NCBI GenBank assembly: GCA_963693365.1
Contig: CAVNZM010000007.1
Span: 558,001 to 622,000, forward strand
Direction of reading: 5' to 3'
Length of the DNA: 64,000 nucleotides
Source of the DNA: Amoebidium appalachense
Taxonomy: Eukaryota > Protista > Ichthyosporea
A model generated the notes under the pieces. That model was not told the origin of the DNA and did not search any database. It worked only from the letters and a program-made list of their open reading frames with translations. Positions 1 through 61,505 of this stretch are shown piece by piece. Position numbers and translations under genes: made by a program. Numbering within the stretch: the stretch's first letter is position 1; each line of letters opens with the position of its first letter.

Positions 1-34
1 TGCGCACCCGTTTTTTCCGTTTTATGTATGTATG

Positions 35-235
35 ACATCAGCCATGCGCACAGTATGCGTCATAAGCAGAGCCCATCCTCAGGGAGGACCAAGTCATCAA
101 TTGCGTCTGAGTTTCGACCCCTTAGCCCGCGTATATACGACGCTCCAACTCAGACAGCAACATCAACTGAACTTGGGGGGGTCAACCCGTCTTGATCGAT
201 ATCAAAGACGAGCAGGGTTGCTTATGCAAGCAAGG
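35..235 (-). mobile_element. Copy of the hammerhead-bearing repeat family
   Basis: 35-80 is near-identical to 11074-11118 (AGCCATGCGCACAGTATGCGTCATAAGC(A/G)GAGCCCATCCT). 61-235 is collinear with 11211-11375 (..CCGTCTTGATC..AGACGAGCAGG(G)TTGCTTATGCA(A/G)GCAAGG). Confidence 0.75.
68..183 (-). ncRNA. Putative hammerhead ribozyme, non-circularly permuted (copy 1)
   Basis: Minus strand: GUCUGAG-UU-GGAG (155-143), then GGGGUC-GAAA-CUCAGAC (121-105), then CUCC-CUGAGGA-UG-GGCUCU (86-68). Stems I, II and III can all pair. Predicted cleavage triplet GUU at 149-147. Confidence 0.6.
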
Positions 236-778
236 TGAGCAAAACGGTGAAGATGTGTGCGCAAACTAATGCAGTGCAGCGAAAAATGCGTATGTGCTTA
301 CAGATGCACGACACAGAGCAACCATGCCCGGTTGCATGGGGGGGGGGGTCTAACCGAAGAACCCGGAAAAAGGACCTGGATAGATCCGTGGTCAAGATTT
401 ATTGACACGGATAGACAGGCCGTAACATCACTACGATAACTCCACATAGAAACATACACATTCGTTCAATAACTCCAAAGCAGTATATTATTGATTATTA
501 CTTAACATGAGATTCGTTACCAACTGAATAAAAACTTATGAAAGATCAATGCGTGAAGTACGTGCCATGTCAATTGTGTGAACATACCCGATTAAAGAAA
601 CATCTGCTAGCTTCATGTCACCAAACTACATTTCAACACTGTTCGTGGTAATACGAGGCGAACTGTTCAAATTCGATAACTGTATCACTCATTACTGCAA
701 GACCTTGCATGCAATATAGACTGAACGAATCACATTACGACTCCCTTAACAACACGTGTAAGTCCCATACAGGGACCA

Positions 779-858
<80 letters not shown>

Positions 859-1589
859 TTCGTGTGTGTGTGTGTTCGTGTGTGCATGTTCGCACACGTG
901 TGTGTGTGTGCGTGTGTGCGTGCGTGTGCGAGTACACGTGCATGGGTATTTGTGTTAACATATGGGCGCATTGAGTTGATGTTGCGGTGTTTTTACCATT
1001 AACCTGCATGGATGCACGTGTATGTGTGTATGTCGATCTGTTGTCTGTGTAGGCATGTCTATGCGCGTGGATATCATGTTGCAAAAGCCCTTCGATTCAG
1101 CACAATACCATACAAGGAGCAAACAAAAAATGTGAGAGTAGGTTTAACGGTATCAAATCATGCGTAGACATTCACTCTTAACCCAACACAATCAACACCA
1201 TAGTTGATGGTTGTGTGATACACGACTCGTGTGTTGATATGATGTGTGTGGTGAGAGAACACTCGGGTGGGGCAGGGTGTGAATGTCAAGCGTTGCGAGT
1301 TCACTCTGGGTTGTATGAGTGTCTGTGCGTGCATGCATGTACTTGCGTGTTTTTAGGTATGTGTGTATGTGTGCATTGTGCGTGCGTGCCTGGGTGAGTG
1401 TGTGCTTGCATGTGTGTGTGCCCGTGCGTGCATTCCTGCCTGTTGTGTGGGTGTGTTGTGCGCGCATGTGTGTTGGTGGTGGTCACGGGGAATGGGGTTC
1501 CAGGTGGTCACTACTGATACACCAATTGAGATGGATGGATGCCACAACGCCTCAACACAAGAAGTGTGAAGGGCAAAAATGAGGTGACA

Positions 1590-18952
<17,363 letters not shown>

Positions 18953-21348: not shown

Positions 21349-23380
21349 CATGTGTGTGTGTGTGTGTGTGTGTGGTGTGCTTGAGAAAGGGGGGGGGGGG
21401 GGGGAGGGTGGGGGGGGGGGGAGGGGAGGGCATGGGATGAGTGAGAGAGCGAGAGGGAGAAGGGGGAAGGGGGGGGGAGGGGGGGGGGGGGGGAGAGAAG
21501 GGGGAGGGGAACGGGGGAGGGAGGGAGGGAGGGAGATGTTTGAGTGTGTGGTGATTGTTTGTGTGTGTGGAGGCTTGCCTGCATGTTGATTTGTATTTTG
21601 AAGAGAAGTGGAGGGAGGAGAGGGGGGGGGGGGGGATATATGACTGCAGCCACCAATGAGTGATGCACCAGGAAAGCAGTACGAAACGAGATGGCTAAAA
21701 TCGCAAAGCAGAAAAGCGAAAAAGCTCAGGACAGGGCGGAGTATGTGTATGAGTGTGTGTTTTGGGGCGAGGGGGGGGGAGGGAGGGGAGGGGGGGGGGG
21801 GGGGGGAGGGGGAGGGAGGAAGGAAGAGGTACATGCAAGAAGAGACGGTTAGGCGCATCGACATTGGAGCGGGGAGGGGGAGGGGGAGGGGAGAAGCGGT
21901 CCGAATGTGTTAGAGTAAGATAAACACATTCACGATCGACAACACAATAAACACGGAGGCGGGGTGTGGCGATGGGGGAGGGGGGCTTGGGGAGTTGGGG
22001 GCGGCCGGGGGAGGGGGAGGGGGGGGGGGGGGGGGGGGGGAGGGAGGGTTCGCATAGTATGCACAAGGGGAAAGGTAGTAAGCAGCGGAGACGCGGGGCG
22101 GGGGGGGGGGGGGGGGGGGGGGGGAAAGGGAGGGAGGGAGGGAGCAAGGATGTAACGGAGTTGGGGGAGCGGGGGGATCCACCACGAGGATGTGTATGAT
22201 GGAACTGGAAAGGAAATGCGTAAAGAGAAACCACTCGCGGGAGGTGGGGGCGAGGGGGGAGGGAGGGGGGAATGCTCGGACACTACCACGGTTTGACAGG
22301 CTTTAATGATAACAAGACGGAAGGGTATGCAGGGCCATAGAAGAAAAGAATTTTTCAACGAAATGAACAGCCGAACCAGGAAGGAAACACCAAGGTGACA
22401 CCGGCAGATAAGTGACGGTCATATGAAGCTTATGTGTGGGGTATGTGTAAGGAAGGGCTGAGAGTAAACGGGGAGGCAGCCGTCCCAGGTCATTGGCTGG
22501 AAAGAAAGAGGGGGATTCTAAGATCGTACAGGGGACCCATGAGCAACACCAGAAGGAAACTGTAACAAGCAGGAGCAAATCAATGCAAGCCATGACATCA
22601 GCTGCAACTCAGACCCACCTTCATGTGTGCCTTGTACTCTCCTCGCGCAAGCATACCGGTGGGTGCCTCCACAAACTCCCCCCCACCGATGTCCAGGTTG
22701 CCAAACTCGCTCTTTGGGGGGTAGGACCCCAGCATCTCTGTCTCGCTCTGCAGTTTCTTGCCCATCTTCGACACAGTGCTCTGGATTTTCAATCCTGCAA
22801 CCACGGTGTGCTGCACCCGGAAGTGCACTCTGATCTTGTACTCTGCCCCCTCCTTGATCACAAGAGGCTTCTCCTTAGCCTTCTTCACGTCCTCTTCCTG
22901 CAAACGTCAAAAATCAGACATTGTGTAAGTAAAAGGGAGTCAAGCAAATTCCGGCACTAAGAACAACGAGTAAGCCAATCCGTAATAAAACGGCCAGTTA
23001 CAAATAGACAAGTTGCCCAAAAACCAACACTCACGAGCACAGCTGCACAACAACCCTATTAAGTCACCTTCCGTTTCGTCCGTTTGCTTCCCCACCCGTT
23101 CCATCACCCTAGAAAGGAAGTGCTTTTTCACCCAGACGACTAAAAGTCGCACCACAAAGATGTAACTACGCCATTTGGAGAAGAGAAGGAGCCTTACTGT
23201 GGCAACATTGAGCACAGCGGCTTCATGGCCGTCCTTGAAAATGATTTCAATCTTGCTGATGACTACACGACGGGGGTCGTCCTTAGGGGGAACATAGTCA
23301 GGGTCGATGCCAAGCGCTTTCAGGTAGGCGATCATGGCAGGATCATTCTTCTCCTTTTCGAAGAACTCTTTTTCTGACAT
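20025..23380 (-). CDS. ARHGDI: Rho GDP-dissociation inhibitor (RhoGDI), 180 aa, 3 exons
   Basis: Exons 23380-23198, 22897-22619 and 20105-20025, all phase 0 and GT-AG. Motifs DDPRRVVI, IKEGAEYKIRVHFRVQH, EMLGSYPP, EAPTGMLARGEYKA, FIDDDNQCHLDFEYTIKIAKDW match the RhoGDI Ig-like fold. Confidence 0.93.
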
Positions 23381-26091: not shown

Positions 26092-43807
<17,716 letters not shown>

Positions 43808-45410
43808 TTCGTTAAACTGCAGTGGTTTTAAAACGGTGTAGCATAAAGAGTTAAAAGCATGGCGAATATATTTTCTTTTTAAATAGGTAAGGGGATGTTA
43901 ACCTGTTAACTGATGTAAGATGCAGTGGACTTTGTTGATAGTGACAGAGTAGTTGTATTGAAGCATGAATGTTGCCTGTCCGTCCGGGTGGGGAGGGGGG
44001 GGGGGGGGGAGGGGGGGGGGGGGGGGGGGGGGGGGGGTACGGTACGGCAGTGTGGGCATCTAAGGACATAACTTCCTGCCTGGATGCAGCGCTGACCAAA
44101 TGAAGGTCTAAAATGGGTGGCTTGCCCACTCCATATATAAATGAAAAGGCGCATCCCTGCCCCCCCTTGGCACCCCCCCCCCCCCCCCCCTTCCCCGGGC
44201 CCCCCTGGAGATAGATCTGTACAACGATCGAGAGCCCCTAGGTATAGGGTGATTGCACACTTAAACCGCTAAAAACCTGTGTTTGATAATTTATCACCGA
44301 ATTAAAAACGTAGACCCGATAACCATAGCCCTATATGTGTATCTGGGCCCTAAAAGGGAGTGCTGCTGCTCTCTTGACCCCCGGCTTCCGTTGCAAATTC
44401 AATTCAAATTAGTTAACCGTCCAACCCCCCCCCCCCCCCCCCTCTCTCGGGCACGGCCACTTTCAAGCAACCCTCCCCTCATCCCCCCTCCCCCCCCCCC
44501 CCCCCCCTCACCCTCCCCTTCCCGGGCCCACACACACACACCACCACCACCACAAATCTTTAAAAAAGAGAGATAAAGGAGAGAGAGAGAGAGAAAGGAG
44601 GGGAAGAAGATTAAAGAGAGGATTCCGAAGACAGAACAGTTATAATTCCGAAAAAAAAAAAAAGAGATACAGCACCCTTCATGCATGTCATGCTTACTTC
44701 AGCTAAGTCATGATAGCAATTATGCCGATATCTCAGTTGATTTGGATCGACGACATGCATATTGGCGACGACCGCTACATTGTCTGGTGGTGGCAGTCCC
44801 TCCCCCCCCCCCCCCCCCCTTCCCCGCCCGGCCCTCCCTACCCTCTCCCCTCCCCCCTCCGAGGCCTCCCCCCCCACCGGCCTCTATAAAAAAACTTTGA
44901 ATAAAGATAACCCCCGAAGCTCCTTTGAAATTTTACACGCGTGCACACTGCACACACACCACGCATGCGCGCGCACGCGCTGTGCATACGTATGTTAACA
45001 CATTTCGAAGAGAGCACAGAAGGCACTATAGAACTCCGGGTTTCTGCCGTCATGCATGGCCTAATACTAACTACAAACATCATATACTTGCCTGGATAAT
45101 CAGATCCTGGGAGGGCCGTGGTGGGTGGGTGGGTTGGTGGGCGGGGGGGGGGGGGGGGGGGGGGGGGGGAGGCACTAGTACTGCGCATGCATGCATAGGC
45201 GCAACCCTCTATCTAACTTCAACAATTTGTGCAACACTGCCAACTACTAGCTACATTTTAGCATGTACATTTGGGGCTATTGTGGTTGACAACAGGGCAT
45301 GCGTGCTAAAATGTACATGTTAATATAGTGCACAAGTCCTCCAGTACTGATGTGTGAAAAGAGTGGACCTTAGGGCAGGGCACATCTTGCGATGGAAGGG
45401 CTTTTGTGTA

Positions 45411-46153
45411 ACACGGCTTTATTTGTTTGCTCAGAAGACATATCACATCACACAGCTTTACATCAGAGAAATACACTGGAGTCAACCAGTATGTATATAC
45501 TACCTCTCATAGGCATTAACCAACATCTACATATAGTACTCACAGACATTTTACAGTCACTGCGTCATACAATCAGCTATATATCTCCCATTGGCAGAAT
45601 ACAACACGCAAATATATCTCACTAACTTTTCAAACACCATCTTTATATCCATTTCTTGTTTCTCATTATTTCATGGTTTTGTTTGTTTTCATTTTATCAT
45701 TTTACAACTTAGATATATCCCCCCCCCCCCCCCCCCTCCCCCCCCCCCCCCCCCCCCCCCCCCCCATTTTTTTTTTTTTATTTTTTTTTTGCGCAGTATA
45801 CTAGTATATACTCGTGTATCACTTTTCAGTTTATAGCACACTTATATCCCACACTTTTTGTTTTTACAACACGTATAAATTTCCCTTCCTTTTTTCTTTT
45901 TTTTGGTTTGTTCTTGCATTGTACAACACGTTTATGTCAACTTCGTGATTTTTTTTTTTTGCATTCTACACACGTAACACACGCACGCACACACGCACGA
46001 ACACACACACACACTATCTCTCCCCCTTGCCCATCACCCGTGCCACTCCCTGGCATTCTGATACCTCTCATCATAGAACCTCTGTCGCACAAAACAGTTC
46101 CAAGGAGAGAAGATAATCCGCATGATCCCAGTTTCAGCCATGTGATCAAACCA
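45411..46153 (+). repeat. Left arm of a ~750-bp diverged inverted repeat
   Basis: CTGGAGTCAACCAGTA, TACCTCTCATAGGCATT, ACAGTCACTGC and CCGCATGATCCCAGTTTCAGCCAT.TGATCAAACCA have reverse complements in collinear order in 47525-48279. Confidence 0.85.
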
Positions 46154-46822: not shown

Positions 46823-47100
46823 TGGAGGAATATCACGTGTTGAGAGCCAGCGACACTGCATGAGCATTGGAGGAATATCACGTGTTGAGAACCAACGACA
46901 CTGCATGAGCATTGGAGGAATGTGACGTGTTGAGAATCAGCGACACTGCATGAGCATTGGAGGAATATCACGTGTTGAGAACCAACGACACTGGATGAGC
47001 ATTGGAGGAATATCACGTGTTGAAAGCCAGCGACACTGTGTGGTCATTGGAGGAATATCACGTGTTGAGAATCAGCGACACTGCATGAGCATTCGAGGAA
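46823..47100. repeat. 45-bp minisatellite, about 6 copies
   Basis: Unit TGGAGGAATATCACGTGTTGAGA(G/A)(C/T)CA(G/A)CGACACTGCATGAGCAT starts at 46823, 46868, 46913, 46958, 47003 and 47048. No unique spacers. Confidence 0.95.
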
Positions 47101-50698: not shown

Positions 50699-52900
50699 GA
50701 AGCACGCGGGGGCTTTATCACATACATACACACACATCACACCGTGCATATCCCCCCCCCCCCCCCCCCCCCCCCCCCCACCACCACCACCACCCCCAAA
50801 AAAAAAAAAAAAGTAAAATAATAAATAAATAATAAATAATAAAACGAATAAATAAAGCAAAACACTCACTTGAGGGTGATGATATACAGCCCCTTCTCTT
50901 CGTTGTACCGCAACAGCCACTGCCCGTTCCTGTGCGAGTCAAACACAAACTCCAGCAGCTGTCGCCTCTGCTGTCTGTGCTGCGCGGGCACATCGTGGAA
51001 AAACGAACAAGTCTCGATCGTTGCACCGTCCATTCTGAACCGTGGGGCCACCAAGCCCTCCAGCTGGCCGATAATACCATAGCCACTGTCGGTCTCGATG
51101 GAGCTGCCATGGTCCTGTTATAAAAAAGGAGGAAGATGAGTGTGAGTGGGTCGCATGCGTTGGAAATTACATGGACTGCAGAGGGTGTGCTATCTAATGC
51201 ATGTGCTATCAAAAAAAGAAAAGAAAGAAAAACATGTGCTTGTTTCATAACTATTTCCTCCCCTTTTCCATCCTCTCTCGAATTCAGATGGTCAAATCGT
51301 TCCTTTCTTCACGCTCACGTCTTGAGGTAGCTTTCTTTACATTCGATGTTTCAATTGTTTCCCTCTTCCCTTTCCTTCTTCCCACATCCCATTTCGTTCG
51401 TTTTAACCTTTTCTTCTTTTTGTGCGAATAATACTGGTTTGGTTTCGAAGCATGGTGGGGGCATATTACCTCGCTCTCATCACTAGCCAAGCTCTGAAAC
51501 CGCGCAATACGTCCAGCCTGGCCCATAGTGTTATCCTGCGACATACTCCGCACCCTTTGCTGCATTGGGCGCATGGTCGGAATGGCGGGCAGTGAATGGC
51601 TCTGTTGGACCTGCATCACCCAATTGTGGTTGTGGTTAACGTGCAGCGCTTCCCCATCCTCACACACGGGTTCGGGGGCTTGTGGTGGCGGCGGTGGTGG
51701 TGTGCGTGCTGGTGGTTGTGATTGTGTGCGTGCGGCATTGTCCTTCGTTTGTTGTAGATCGTTGTAGCTTGGGGGTGGAGGAGAATGCTTGGGATAGGCG
51801 GAGGTGACCGGGGTAGTGGAAAGAGGGCGGGCGGCTGGTTTGGTGGTGGTGCTGTTTGTCGTTGGCTTCTCCTTTTCGGATCGTTTACCATTGACCAGGT
51901 CAGTGATGTCTGACTGCTCGGCAAAGCACATGCTCACCGGCCCAACGTGAACTCGCAGTTTCGCCATATCTCGTGACGGAAACAACGTCTTTTTCCGTTT
52001 CACCTCAAACAATATTCTCTCGGCCGCCGGCTGTGCGTTCAACTCCTTAGCCAACCCATCTAGTGCCGCCAGAAGTGTGTCCCTCGGCAGTTTGTACTGT
52101 AGGACGGCGTTTATTCTCTCCGTTGCCCTTTTCACGTGCATGCACTCATCTACACTCAATTGCTCAGAAACAAGCGTCGACTTGTACACATCTACCACCC
52201 GCCCGTGTGGCTCACTCTTAGCCAAATCGAACGAGAGAAGTTTGTGGGTTGTCGTTTGCTCCTCCGAAAATTCTTTCCCCAAACGCTCCGCTCCACCTGT
52301 CATCGTTCCTTTCCGCCCGATTTTTTTCGGCCACGAGCTGTTTTTGTTGTTGGGTAATGGTACTGAGCTGTGATGTGCAACTCTGCGAGCAGTGGGATTT
52401 GCTGTCGCTGGCACCGATGTGTCTTCACCAACAGGAGTGGAGCCCTTTGGAGAAAGTGCCCTATCTGCCTGATTGTGTCTGTGCGTGTTGTTTACGGGCT
52501 GTACTTGCTTCTGTGGTGGCGGTGTGCTTGTGTCTGGGGTGTCCACATTCACATACAAGGTATGGGGTCCGTTTGTGTCTTCAGGAATCTGGGGCCGCAT
52601 GACGTGTGGTTCGGTACTATCAAGCTCCGGTCGCACGGCACAAACGTTTTGTACCCATCTGTCTGTATACGCCTGACGTGCCCACTCGTTTTGTTCGTGC
52701 ATCCTCTCCCTGTACTCACTACCATTACTTGGTCTGCGGTTACGCAAAGCACTTCTCCATTGCTCTACGTTTAGCTCTAGGGGCCGTGTGGAATCGAGGT
52801 CACCTAGGCCACTCAGTGTGTTCGCTAGAGCTGGTTTGGGGAGCCCCATGACGGTATTGGGTGGCATGGTTAGTACTGCGGTTTGCTCTCTATAATACAT
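50261..52900 (-). CDS. SH2-domain adaptor protein (~629 aa): long disordered/Pro-rich N-terminus, C-terminal SH2
   Basis: Exons 52900-51470, 51114-50870 and 50474-50261 (1890 nt, phases 0/2). SH2 motifs FFHDV..RQLLE..NGQWLLRY..GLYIITLKY..LLHMPV..FSLNQVRFASLIDLLNYY..LSDPV, with the betaB Arg retained. In-frame stop upstream of the ATG at 52900. Confidence 0.85.
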
Positions 52901-54419
52901 GCTGTGCTTCGTTCACCAACTGCGAAAAAAAAGTCACAAGAAAACATAACGTTTGTGTGCCGAACGTTCAACAAAGTAAAACTGTTTTCGCTCTCGGCCG
53001 GAGAAGTAGATATAGACGGAGAAGTATTGTCTGTGTATAGCTGTATGACTATTGAATGGCGTCATTTGCGGATAGGGCGGACATTCACTATGTGTCACAT
53101 TCCTTGGAATTGAATACGATTGGCTAAAAATTACCTCTACATTCCTCAGATCGATATATCCGCGAAGCCTCACTCACTGGCAGTGAATCATGATTATGGA
53201 ATGAGTGAATAACACGGGACCTTCCATTTCGACTCCAATATGATGGGTAAAACACTAGAAACTAATGAAAAGAACTCATCACAAGCATTTTTTACATTTG
53301 AAACCGTTGGTATATTACAGGAAACAAGAAGTTCTTAGGCAAGCTTATCCAGTGCTTTTGTGGCAATAGAGCCTGTAAGACTCAGTGTGAGTATTGCTTT
53401 TTATTGGTTAAAAGTCACCTTTTTTCTTTGGGCAAGAGGCTTTATTGGTCAAATGAATGAAGCCATCTGGATTCCTAGTTTTATCGCAAATTCCATTTGC
53501 CTCACAAAAAGGAAGCTCAAAATGTTCCTGTAATCATAATAAGCTTCTCCTTGACATTATTTTAATAATGTCTTTCACATATGTAAATGCACCTTTGCTT
53601 TTATGACCTCCATGATCTATTTCTCAATCTTTGTCAACACCCACATGCAGTGAGTGGAATCAGGCTGCCACTTGTCGATTGGCCGGGGGGATAAATCTGG
53701 GTTTTATTCGGATTGCCAGAGCCGAAACAGGAATTTCCAATTCGGTACAGGGTGTGATATTCATGCTCAGGTCCGGACTCCAGATGACTGCCCAGCCTCG
53801 TGATCAGGGCCGGTTTCTGATTGATATAAATGTTGTCTCCAGCCTTCGTCAAAATAATTGGCCACGAACCTCTTCAGTTATTAGTTTTATCTTTAAAGTC
53901 GTAATTTCAGCTTCCTGTTTACTATATATATACTTCTTATCCAAACTCTCATTTGCTTCATCGGAATGTTTTCGCACCGACCACATGCACTCGGCATGGC
54001 CAGGAATTTATAACCCTAACGGGCTGCAGTCACTGCTGCTCTCACTGCGGCCTCTTTGTTTAAAGGTTTTTTTTTCTTTGGGTAAAAAAAAGGAAGAAAG
54101 GAAGGAAGAGAAGAAAATAAGAAGAAGAGGAGGAAGAAGAAAAAACCTTGCGGGGGCATTATTGCGGCTCCAACATGATAATTTGAACTGCTGGTTCGCA
54201 ATTGCAAGTTCACGTACACGTCGTCACCATGATCACGGTGTGGAGGTCGCTGGTCTTTACATGCATCATACGGTACTTGTATCATCATCATGGCATGACA
54301 TGCATGCTGTCGTGTTTTGTTGCGCATCTGCAGGAAGCAAGTCACGGACATGCACATGTCCTAGTAATATATTGGCCCGGTGAATACTAGTACGATGGGG
54401 AGAACACAAGAATAATAAA

Positions 54420-60881: not shown

Positions 60882-60955
<74 letters not shown>

Positions 60956-61505
60956 ACGTATGCCTGTGTGTATGTGTGAACACATCTGTATTTGTGTGTG
61001 TGCACACGTATGCCTGTGTGTATGTGTGAACACATCTGTATTTGTGTGTGTGCACACGTATGCCTGTGTGTATGTGTGAACACATCTGTATTTGTGTGTG
61101 TGCACACGTATGCCTGTGTGTATGTGTGAACACATCTGTATTTGTGTGTGTGCACACGTATGCCTGTGTGTATGTGTGAACACATCTGTATTTGTGTGTG
61201 TGCACACGTATGCCTGTGTGTATGTGTGAACACATCTGTATGTGTGTGTGTGCACATGTGCCTGTGCAGACACACCCACCCACCCTCGTTCAAGTGCAGC
61301 CCATACTCCCTGTTTTCCTCCATTAGCTGTGCACACTTTGCCCTCAGCCGCAGACCCACAGCACTGCAAAATAAAACTTTCAGTTATGAACAAAACAAGA
61401 CAAACCAATAGAGCCCCTCTTCTTCCCCCCCCCCCCCCCCCCCTTGCTCCACCTTCCGAAATGCAACCATAAAGCCTCCGGTTTACCTTTTTAACTCACT
61501 GAATA

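Follow-up and report, generated by a model that had tools for sequence, protein, structure and literature searches.

Introduction

The closest described counterparts of the element reported here are the type-SGC hammerhead ribozymes, in which the core strands follow the order cleavage site, GAAA, CUGANGA (S-G-C); 583 members have been predicted, five of which cleave in vitro (Eckert et al. 2023, PMC10085705). According to the text and supplement of that study, these motifs are about 60 to 100 nt long and were found in metatranscriptome contigs, with none in the genome of any known organism apart from one GCS candidate. The hammerheads described from Penelope elements are of type I (Cervera and de la Pena 2014, PMC4209133), and the Penelope-like Naiad and Chlamys elements are presented as lacking canonical hammerheads, some Naiads carrying a "half core" (Craig et al. 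2021, PMC8557442). The same paper lists a (C)n target for many Chlamys elements and describes 5' truncation and partial tandems as traits of both groups.

Here, we analyze a 64,000-nt stretch of Amoebidium appalachense DNA (contig CAVNZM010000007.1, positions 558,001 to 622,000; the window, below), which holds a repeat family with two complete S-G-C hammerhead cores on the minus strand. The topology is already known, since Eckert et al. named this order type-SGC. New here are its occurrence in a genomic retroelement of a non-animal host and the periphery of the motif, namely, a long stem III arm with a kink-turn (k-turn) sequence and a multiloop closed by a helix that we call P0. An earlier annotation pass over the same DNA (the first-pass annotation) had proposed a new retroelement-borne ribozyme family. 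Its central reading, that a microbial eukaryote has a non-circular hammerhead in a repeat resembling a retroelement, is supported; the order itself belongs to a named and validated class, and the periphery goes beyond what that annotation described. In the paper text covered by our literature search, mainly open-access and without figures or bioRxiv supplements, SGC hammerheads are described from no retroelement and Penelope ribozymes from no ichthyosporean; the term "ichthyospor" does not occur in the searchable text of Craig et al. (2021), nor do "Creolimax" and "Amoebidium" in its searchable supplement.

Two complete cores in the S-G-C order

The two complete cores belong to two subfamilies of the repeat, which have the ribozyme domain in common and unlike upstream parts.

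35..339, minus strand: copy 1, subfamily 1, 5'- and 3'-truncated, following a C run (348-338) on that strand
143..155, minus strand: block S of copy 1, with stem IIIa at 155-148, H17 at U147, stem Ia at 146-143 and the predicted cut at 147/146
105..121, minus strand: block G of copy 1, with stem IIb at 121-116, GAAA at 115-112 and stem IIIb at 111-105
68..86, minus strand: block C of copy 1, with stem Ib at 86-83, CUGAGGA at 82-76, UG, and stem IIa at 73-68
11128..11880, minus strand: copy 2, subfamily 2, about 750 nt, non-coding, with a complete SGC core and a 3' end followed by a C run
11303-11220, minus strand: core of copy 2, with U16.1 at 11296, G12 at 11267, C3 at 11233 and the predicted cut at 11295/11294

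A descriptor for all six block orders, with gaps of up to 60 nt, matched exactly two loci in the window, copies 1 and 2, both in the order site, GAAA, CUGANGA (C3 at minus-strand 82 and 11233, respectively). The other five orders gave no match in the window, and no SGC locus appeared in 200 block-wise dinucleotide shuffles. CUGANGA, GAAA and NUH are all intact in both copies, which share 74.6% identity over 185 nt (E 6e-22), and the A15.1-U16.1 and G10.1-C11.1 pairs are present. Adjoining the core, stems I, II and III have 4, 6 and 8 bp in copy 1 and 3, 4 and 8 bp in the subfamily 2 majority; the stem II register of copy 1 is ambiguous, with either a UG insertion after A9 or a U plus a bulged or mismatched G. 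The first-pass annotation had read the minus-strand order NUH, GAAA, CUGANGA and had suggested a descriptor search for it, which confirmed the order and added no locus to these two; the cut positions predicted on re-reading coincide with its own, and pairing, whose G-U pairs it had read as working only on the minus strand, is fuller there, with 31 of 31 copy 1 pairs holding versus 27 of 31 on the plus strand. Rfam gave no match at the gathering threshold anywhere in the window, and no hammerhead is found among its 71 weak matches (E<=5) in 1-12000.

Outside the window, none of the 120 loci listed, out of about 170 viral loci matched by core-based patterns, is SGC, and among 17 core-pattern loci (2 metagenome and 15 viral), none has all three stems of at least 3, 4 and 4 bp beyond the pattern. 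Three of these, the viral-contig loci L134 and L136 (each 1001-1074, minus strand) and L137 (1001-1088, plus strand), read as canonical type II (GSC) hammerheads.

Compensatory changes and core conservation

The covariation test used 31 pairs, drawn from stems I to III, the arm and the distal helix (P0 and three non-canonical k-turn pairs excluded), and compared them between the subfamily majorities. The majorities differ at 17 sites in these pairs, with 30 and 28 pairs kept, and five changes are two-sided and preserve pairing (one each in stem I, stem III and the distal helix and two in the arm), against a mean of 0.93 under random placement of the changes (P 0.0003). All core nucleotides are identical between subfamilies that are about 25% apart, while flanks and linkers differ. 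Within subfamily 2, only U4 varies in the core (0.45-1.7%) among the 40 of 47 rows listed; within subfamily 1, no core nucleotide shows a change at 2% of depth or more in the contigs matching window 1-520.

Of the covariation noted in the first-pass annotation, that of stem I, stem III and the distal extension is reproduced here. Its stem II covariation is not; in copy 2, it depended on base 11223, which differs from 99% of family contig depth, and the majorities show no two-sided change there. The GGCCU register of stem II in copy 2 is not family-wide, since 11223 is a private mutation (<1% of family depth), and the subfamily 2 majority stem IIa is the same as that of copy 1. Some of the covariation put forward in the first-pass annotation derives from a decayed copy. 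It also drew stem II pairs from two partial copies:

10900..10974, minus strand: copy 3, starting with stem Ia right after a C run, with blocks G and C and without IIIa and UH
8312..8491, minus strand: copy 4, with block G, a C run in place of CUGA and a subfamily-2-like tail

Lacking, respectively, stem IIIa with the UH site and CUGA, these copies are unable to cut themselves. Copy 2 has four private bases in all (11223, 11239, 11304 and 11332), which differ from 94-99.9% of family depth; in a 168-nt fold, its stem III has a probability of 0.13 with these bases and of about 1.0 once the family-majority bases are put in.

Taken together, the hammerhead fold is real and selected. That the motif arose in the repeat by chance and is under no structural selection is largely refuted already and hardly credible: the window holds only two complete copies, and fold z-scores lie near background, but no shuffle yields a match, compensatory changes are in excess and majority bases restore pairs.

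A stem III arm with a predicted k-turn

Beyond the core, stem III extends into an arm of about 25 bp, surrounded by further elements, given here for copy 1.

97..167, minus strand: predicted k-turn in the stem III arm, with a 3-nt bulge at 167-165, G1b/A2b at 164-163, G2n/A1n at 98-97 and U.U at 3b.3n
162-157 with 104-99, minus strand: NC stem of the k-turn
176-168 with 96-89 (89..176), minus strand: distal helix, the C stem of the k-turn, with one two-sided change relative to subfamily 2
122..142, minus strand: 21-nt Ia-IIb linker with a 10-nt palindrome at 139-130, a hairpin in cis or a dimer seed
226-219 with 68-61 (61..226), minus strand: P0, closing a multiloop of P0, hairpin A (about 217-184), the stem III arm and block C

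Both subfamilies show, in the same register, the standard k-turn pattern, in which two helices flank a 3-nt bulge and then tandem G.A and A.G; the bulge is GUU and 3b.3n is U.U in copy 1, and they are AGU and A.G in copy 2. The motif is thus kept while the bulge and the 3b.3n pair change, and the chance of meeting it in register is about 0.6% for one orientation. With its U.U, subfamily 1 is like the box C/D k-turns. A register with the bulge on the 3' strand, which fits copy 1 only, was dropped in favor of the 5'-strand register. Like the standard k-turns Kt-7 and box C/D, the motif has the 3-nt bulge and then G.A and A.G, although its C stem, unlike theirs, begins with A-U (McPhee et al. 2014, PMC4382518). 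In the part of that study that bears on ion-dependent folding, A.G at 3b.3n, the pair of subfamily 2, is the Kt-7 pair and belongs to the class that folds in ions, while ions alone are reported not to be enough to fold the class with U.U.

The nested scaffold of copy 1 (P0, hairpin A and the stem III arm) folds with high probability; pair probabilities are 0.96-1.0 for P0, which has eight pairs in copy 1 and seven in copy 2, and 0.87-1.0 for the outer five pairs of the distal helix. Given this scaffold, the apical loop and the junction strand at the base of the arm can form stems I and II only as pseudoknots. A straight arm would exclude docking in cis, because this strand lies at the base of some 25 bp, 2-3 nt from the distal helix (2 nt in copy 1). 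The predicted k-turn likely bends the arm back and so enables folding in cis.

The main rival, which we consider unlikely, is that the arm is a stiff strut and that block C docks on the apical loop of another unit, seeded by the linker palindrome, so that only tandem or paired RNAs are cut. Since each subfamily has a different 10-nt linker palindrome, a dimer mechanism is kept in play, and the computed energies favor self-duplexes (-17.8 kcal/mol in copy 1 and -15.8 in subfamily 2) over hairpins (-2.6 and -1.7). The short joiner between the distal helix and stem Ib and the partial tandems common in the family also speak for it, as does the description of Penelope hammerheads with palindromic helix III as acting as dimers (PMC4209133). 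Nevertheless, the k-turn motif provides a route in cis, and a single unit forms a long, stable stem III and is closed by P0; moreover, neither copy 3 nor copy 4 has the 10-nt palindrome in its linker, and no tandem of two complete cores exists in the window.

The same periphery sets the motif apart from the published type-SGC hammerheads. In common with them, it has the S-G-C order, an intact core, stems I and II as pseudoknots, a U after CUGANGA and a helix directly 3' of IIa, as far as the supplementary alignments and descriptors of Eckert et al. (2023) show these features. In HRIMA-1 and the SGC variants, however, the Ia-IIb linker is about 3 nt (up to 8 nt in the descriptor), whereas here it is palindromic and 20-21 nt long, and the distance from IIIb to Ib, at most 15 nt in the descriptor, is 18 nt in copy 1. 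HRIMA-1 closes block C by a local fourth helix of its flanking strands, which here pair instead in the distal helix and P0. The P0 partner lying 5' of block S, the arm of about 25 bp with its k-turn sequence, CUGAGGA, and the genomic high-copy setting are further differences from HRIMA-1 and the SGC variants. The published descriptors cannot match this motif, since they require CUGAUGA(U)G and linkers of up to 8 and 15 nt (PMC10085705). By its sequence, then, the Amoebidium motif has SGC topology and lies outside the HRIMA-1 and SGC-variant families.

"Kink" and "k-turn" do not occur in the searchable text and supplement of Eckert et al. (2023), nor, by term search, does "kink" in the accessible text of Perreault 2011 (PMC3088659) and PMC6466107. 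In several HRIMA-1 rows of the supplementary alignment (PMC10085705), the interaction helix has an internal loop in which each strand contains G and A; this may be a k-turn-like element, though it goes unnamed in that text.

A high-copy repeat with traits of a mobile element

Further units of the family in the window, besides copies 1 to 4, and the terminal motif of its tails are as follows.

11002..11117, minus strand: 5'-truncated subfamily-1 unit starting inside block C, in tandem after copy 2, with a C run at its end
10182..10291, minus strand: 3'-tail-only unit of subfamily 1, between C runs
31912..31997, plus strand: 3'-tail-only unit on the opposite strand, between C runs
11144..11154, 11019-11029, 10200-10210 and 8328-8338, minus strand, and 31968-31978, plus strand: 3'-terminal motif GUACUUCGUAC, exact in five of five tails

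Contigs matching window 1-520 number 7752, 2514, 2460 and 134 in four runs, and those matching 11005-11900 number 12000, 6585, 13 and 4. Across about 37-324 of copy 1, contig depth rises about 10^4-fold above the flank; in run X1, the summed depth is 0.7-1.8 million over the element versus 85 in the flank, depth not being equal to copy number. Copies in the genome are likely to number in the thousands. Loose contig ends at 35 and 339 show that other copies extend beyond copy 1, and in run X4, the depth over copy 2 drops toward its 5' end, a gradient of 5' truncation. Of the 12 contig joints listed (of 31), seven connect a unit truncated at its 5' end with the 3' end at 11005/11007, and in six of these the connection runs via a poly-C run.

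The family thus combines a fixed 3' end, variable 5' truncation, partial tandems and a microsatellite target. All five tails in the window end in a C run, and they match GUACUUCGUAC five times against 0.53 expected; the motif is a candidate for the signal read by the reverse transcriptase. In the 3'-terminal hairpin, the lower stem shows no significant covariation (160 of 500 shuffles as high). C runs followed by GG occur 5 times among 161 in the window, three of them in this family. Copy 3 starts within 1 nt of the predicted cut and copy 4 about 1 nt past it. Contig ends do not pile up, a signal that contigs would not carry anyway. A repeat search of the whole window returned microsatellites only, and the family motif outside the core gave no match in metagenome, genome and viral contig collections. 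In runs X1 and X3, a contig joint from 251 to 204 with three extra letters has a high depth (800-2500) and suggests that there is a subfamily carrying, upstream of hairpin A, an internal duplication or inversion.

Partial tandems also raise the idea that an ordinary circularly permuted hammerhead spans adjacent units, with blocks S and C from one unit and block G from the next, and that the scrambled order is only apparent. Although a canonical order can be read over such a junction, the covarying arm holds S, G and the strand that runs up to C together inside one unit, the unit after copy 2 lacks S and G, and no canonical-order match was found within the gap limit given above; we regard this explanation as very unlikely.

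Since (C)n targets, 5' truncation and partial tandems are traits of Chlamys and Naiad (PMC8557442), the repeat is, by analogy, likely copied by a Penelope-like reverse transcriptase. It resembles these elements in truncation, partial tandems and microsatellite targets, although, unlike theirs, no reverse transcriptase or endonuclease reading frame is linked to the repeat here. Three Naiad consensus sequences supplied with Craig et al. (2021) can be read by eye in the S-G-C order; one of them, Naiad_Ovul by its order in the file, is flagged there only as "HHR_half_core". The two cephalopod entries among the three have GUC-GAAA and CUGAUGA-UG-G in common, along with a k-turn-like stem III bulge, which lies on the 3' strand and adjoins a short stem III, whereas the bulge here lies on the 5' strand, about 15 bp from the core. 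Four 8-mer searches, a limited survey, found no SGC motif in the Chlamys consensus file.

With the type I hammerheads of Penelope pseudo-long terminal repeats (pLTRs) and retrozymes, the repeat shares a hammerhead near its 3' end, an extra nucleotide after A9 and a palindrome that may seed dimers (PMC4209133; Li et al. 2026, bioRxiv 10.64898/2026.07.22.740005). As described in the consulted parts of these sources, those ribozymes are circular type I (CGS) with a short helix III, whereas the order here is non-circular and helix III is long. In non-long-terminal-repeat retrozymes, full units that each carry a type I hammerhead are arranged in tandem; with its partial tandems and SGC cores, the repeat falls outside that class.

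A 64-aa frame upstream of copy 2 was considered as part of a Penelope protein on account of its resemblance to what we take to be the Penelope linker motif. The candidate was rejected; its sole match, to an unrelated protein, was inflated by repeats, and no long frame opens there with the majority bases.

Model for cleavage and mobilization

Considering these data, we propose that the motif acts as a monomeric SGC hammerhead, a model that we hold to be somewhat probable. In this model, the long stem III hairpin would form first, leaving UH, stem Ia, the linker, stem IIb and GAAA in its apical loop. The k-turn would then bend the distal helix back along the stem III arm, and block C, held between the distal helix and P0, would reach the apical loop and dock there, with stems I and II forming as two pseudoknots. 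A slow or conditional cut after GUU would trim the element RNA from read-through or tandem transcripts. Finally, the 3' piece, with its terminal stem-loop, may be reverse-transcribed by a Penelope-like reverse transcriptase into (C)n tracts.

Several observations weigh against this model. The covariation comes from two lineages only, and the structure was read from the same two sequences; stem II shows no two-sided change between the majorities, and P0 shows none because it is identical in both copies. Invariance of the subfamily 1 core is weak evidence, since few positions vary anywhere. The duplex energies of stem I are small (-3.7 kcal/mol for 4 bp in subfamily 1 and -2.5 for 3 bp in subfamily 2), and a change at 85, present at 9% of depth in run X4, breaks its pair I.3. 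Block C is able to form a local hairpin, and in a 283-nt context, the stem III probability of copy 2 is 0 with or without the four majority bases, because upstream sequence competes; the fold z-scores of the whole regions are unremarkable (-1.63 and 0.80). A third family unit, at 8412, starts at a G run and not at the cut site, so the hint of cleavage from 5' ends is weak. As to mobilization, no match to a reverse transcriptase or GIY-YIG family was found in 123 of 503 window open reading frames (at least 70 aa), and no long reading frame lies upstream of copy 2, even with majority bases.

Some of these points would also fit a selected fold that lacks a useful cutting rate, serving as a scaffold for the element's reverse transcriptase or a host k-turn-binding protein, with a vestigial core. 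Stems I and II are weak and local folds compete, copies lie in host introns in sense orientation, and long 5'-extended copies exist, so that much template RNA must be left uncut; metazoan Penelope hammerheads are likewise described as cleaving poorly in vitro (PMC4209133). Such a scaffold seems distinctly unlikely, however, considering that the core is identical across the two subfamilies while flanks and linkers diverge, that stem I itself carries a two-sided change and that two truncated copies begin at the predicted cut site.

The monomeric model invites a bolder and rather unlikely extension, in which the ribozyme missing from the entire Penelope lineage with an N-terminal endonuclease would be the SGC hammerhead with a k-turn brace, its origin predating the animals. 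In the present ichthyosporean family, the k-turn would be a gate, its box C/D-like version folding only on a host protein of the Snu13/L7Ae type.

Host locus and other features of the window

22601-22906, minus strand: Rho GDP-dissociation inhibitor exon (Pfam E 3e-23)
1829..13671, minus strand: diacylglycerol-kinase-like host gene, with weak Pfam matches in the order C1_1, DAGK_acc twice

The Rho GDP-dissociation inhibitor exon has 12 matches, the best named being CFRG0432T1 (78%), whose CFRG prefix we take to stand for Creolimax, and Sphaeroforma arctica (74%), which identifies the host as an ichthyosporean. In the diacylglycerol-kinase-like gene, the matches are C1_1 in 13159-13671 (E 0.0025) and DAGK_acc in 5068-5424 (E 2e-4) and 1829-2239 (E 3e-5), all of which score under the curated cut-offs. 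Copies 2 to 4 lie in sense orientation between exons of this gene, and copy 1 lies about 1.8 kb beyond its last matched exon on the same strand. As they stand, none of copies 2 to 4 is predicted to be a working ribozyme, because copies 3 and 4 are incomplete and copy 2 is predicted to misfold.

Elsewhere in the window, a second dispersed repeat pair (45409-45576 and 48282-48102, mutually inverted, 72% identity) has one copy adjoining a long C run and is possibly another (C)n-targeting family. A third pair (46054-46153 and 47625-47525, inverted, 86% identity), one copy of which ends in a C run, lacks CUGANGA. Two stretches, 46823-47100 and 60955-61241, hold tandem arrays (45-nt unit, 50-nt period), and a 542-aa open frame (51284-52912, minus strand) is proline/serine-rich without a Pfam match.

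Significance

As far as the publications cited here extend, type-SGC hammerheads have so far been reported only from environmental RNA of unknown hosts. Found as a genomic family of very high abundance in a single-celled organism related to animals, they gain a defined biological setting and many natural variants. The family also bears on the point made by Craig et al. (2021), in the sections on ribozymes, that Naiad and Chlamys elements spread without a canonical hammerhead; a ribozyme may exist there in a wiring that descriptors have missed. If the extended proposal were true, the k-turn gate would be a natural protein-switched self-cleaving RNA that times the cutting of retroelement transcripts.
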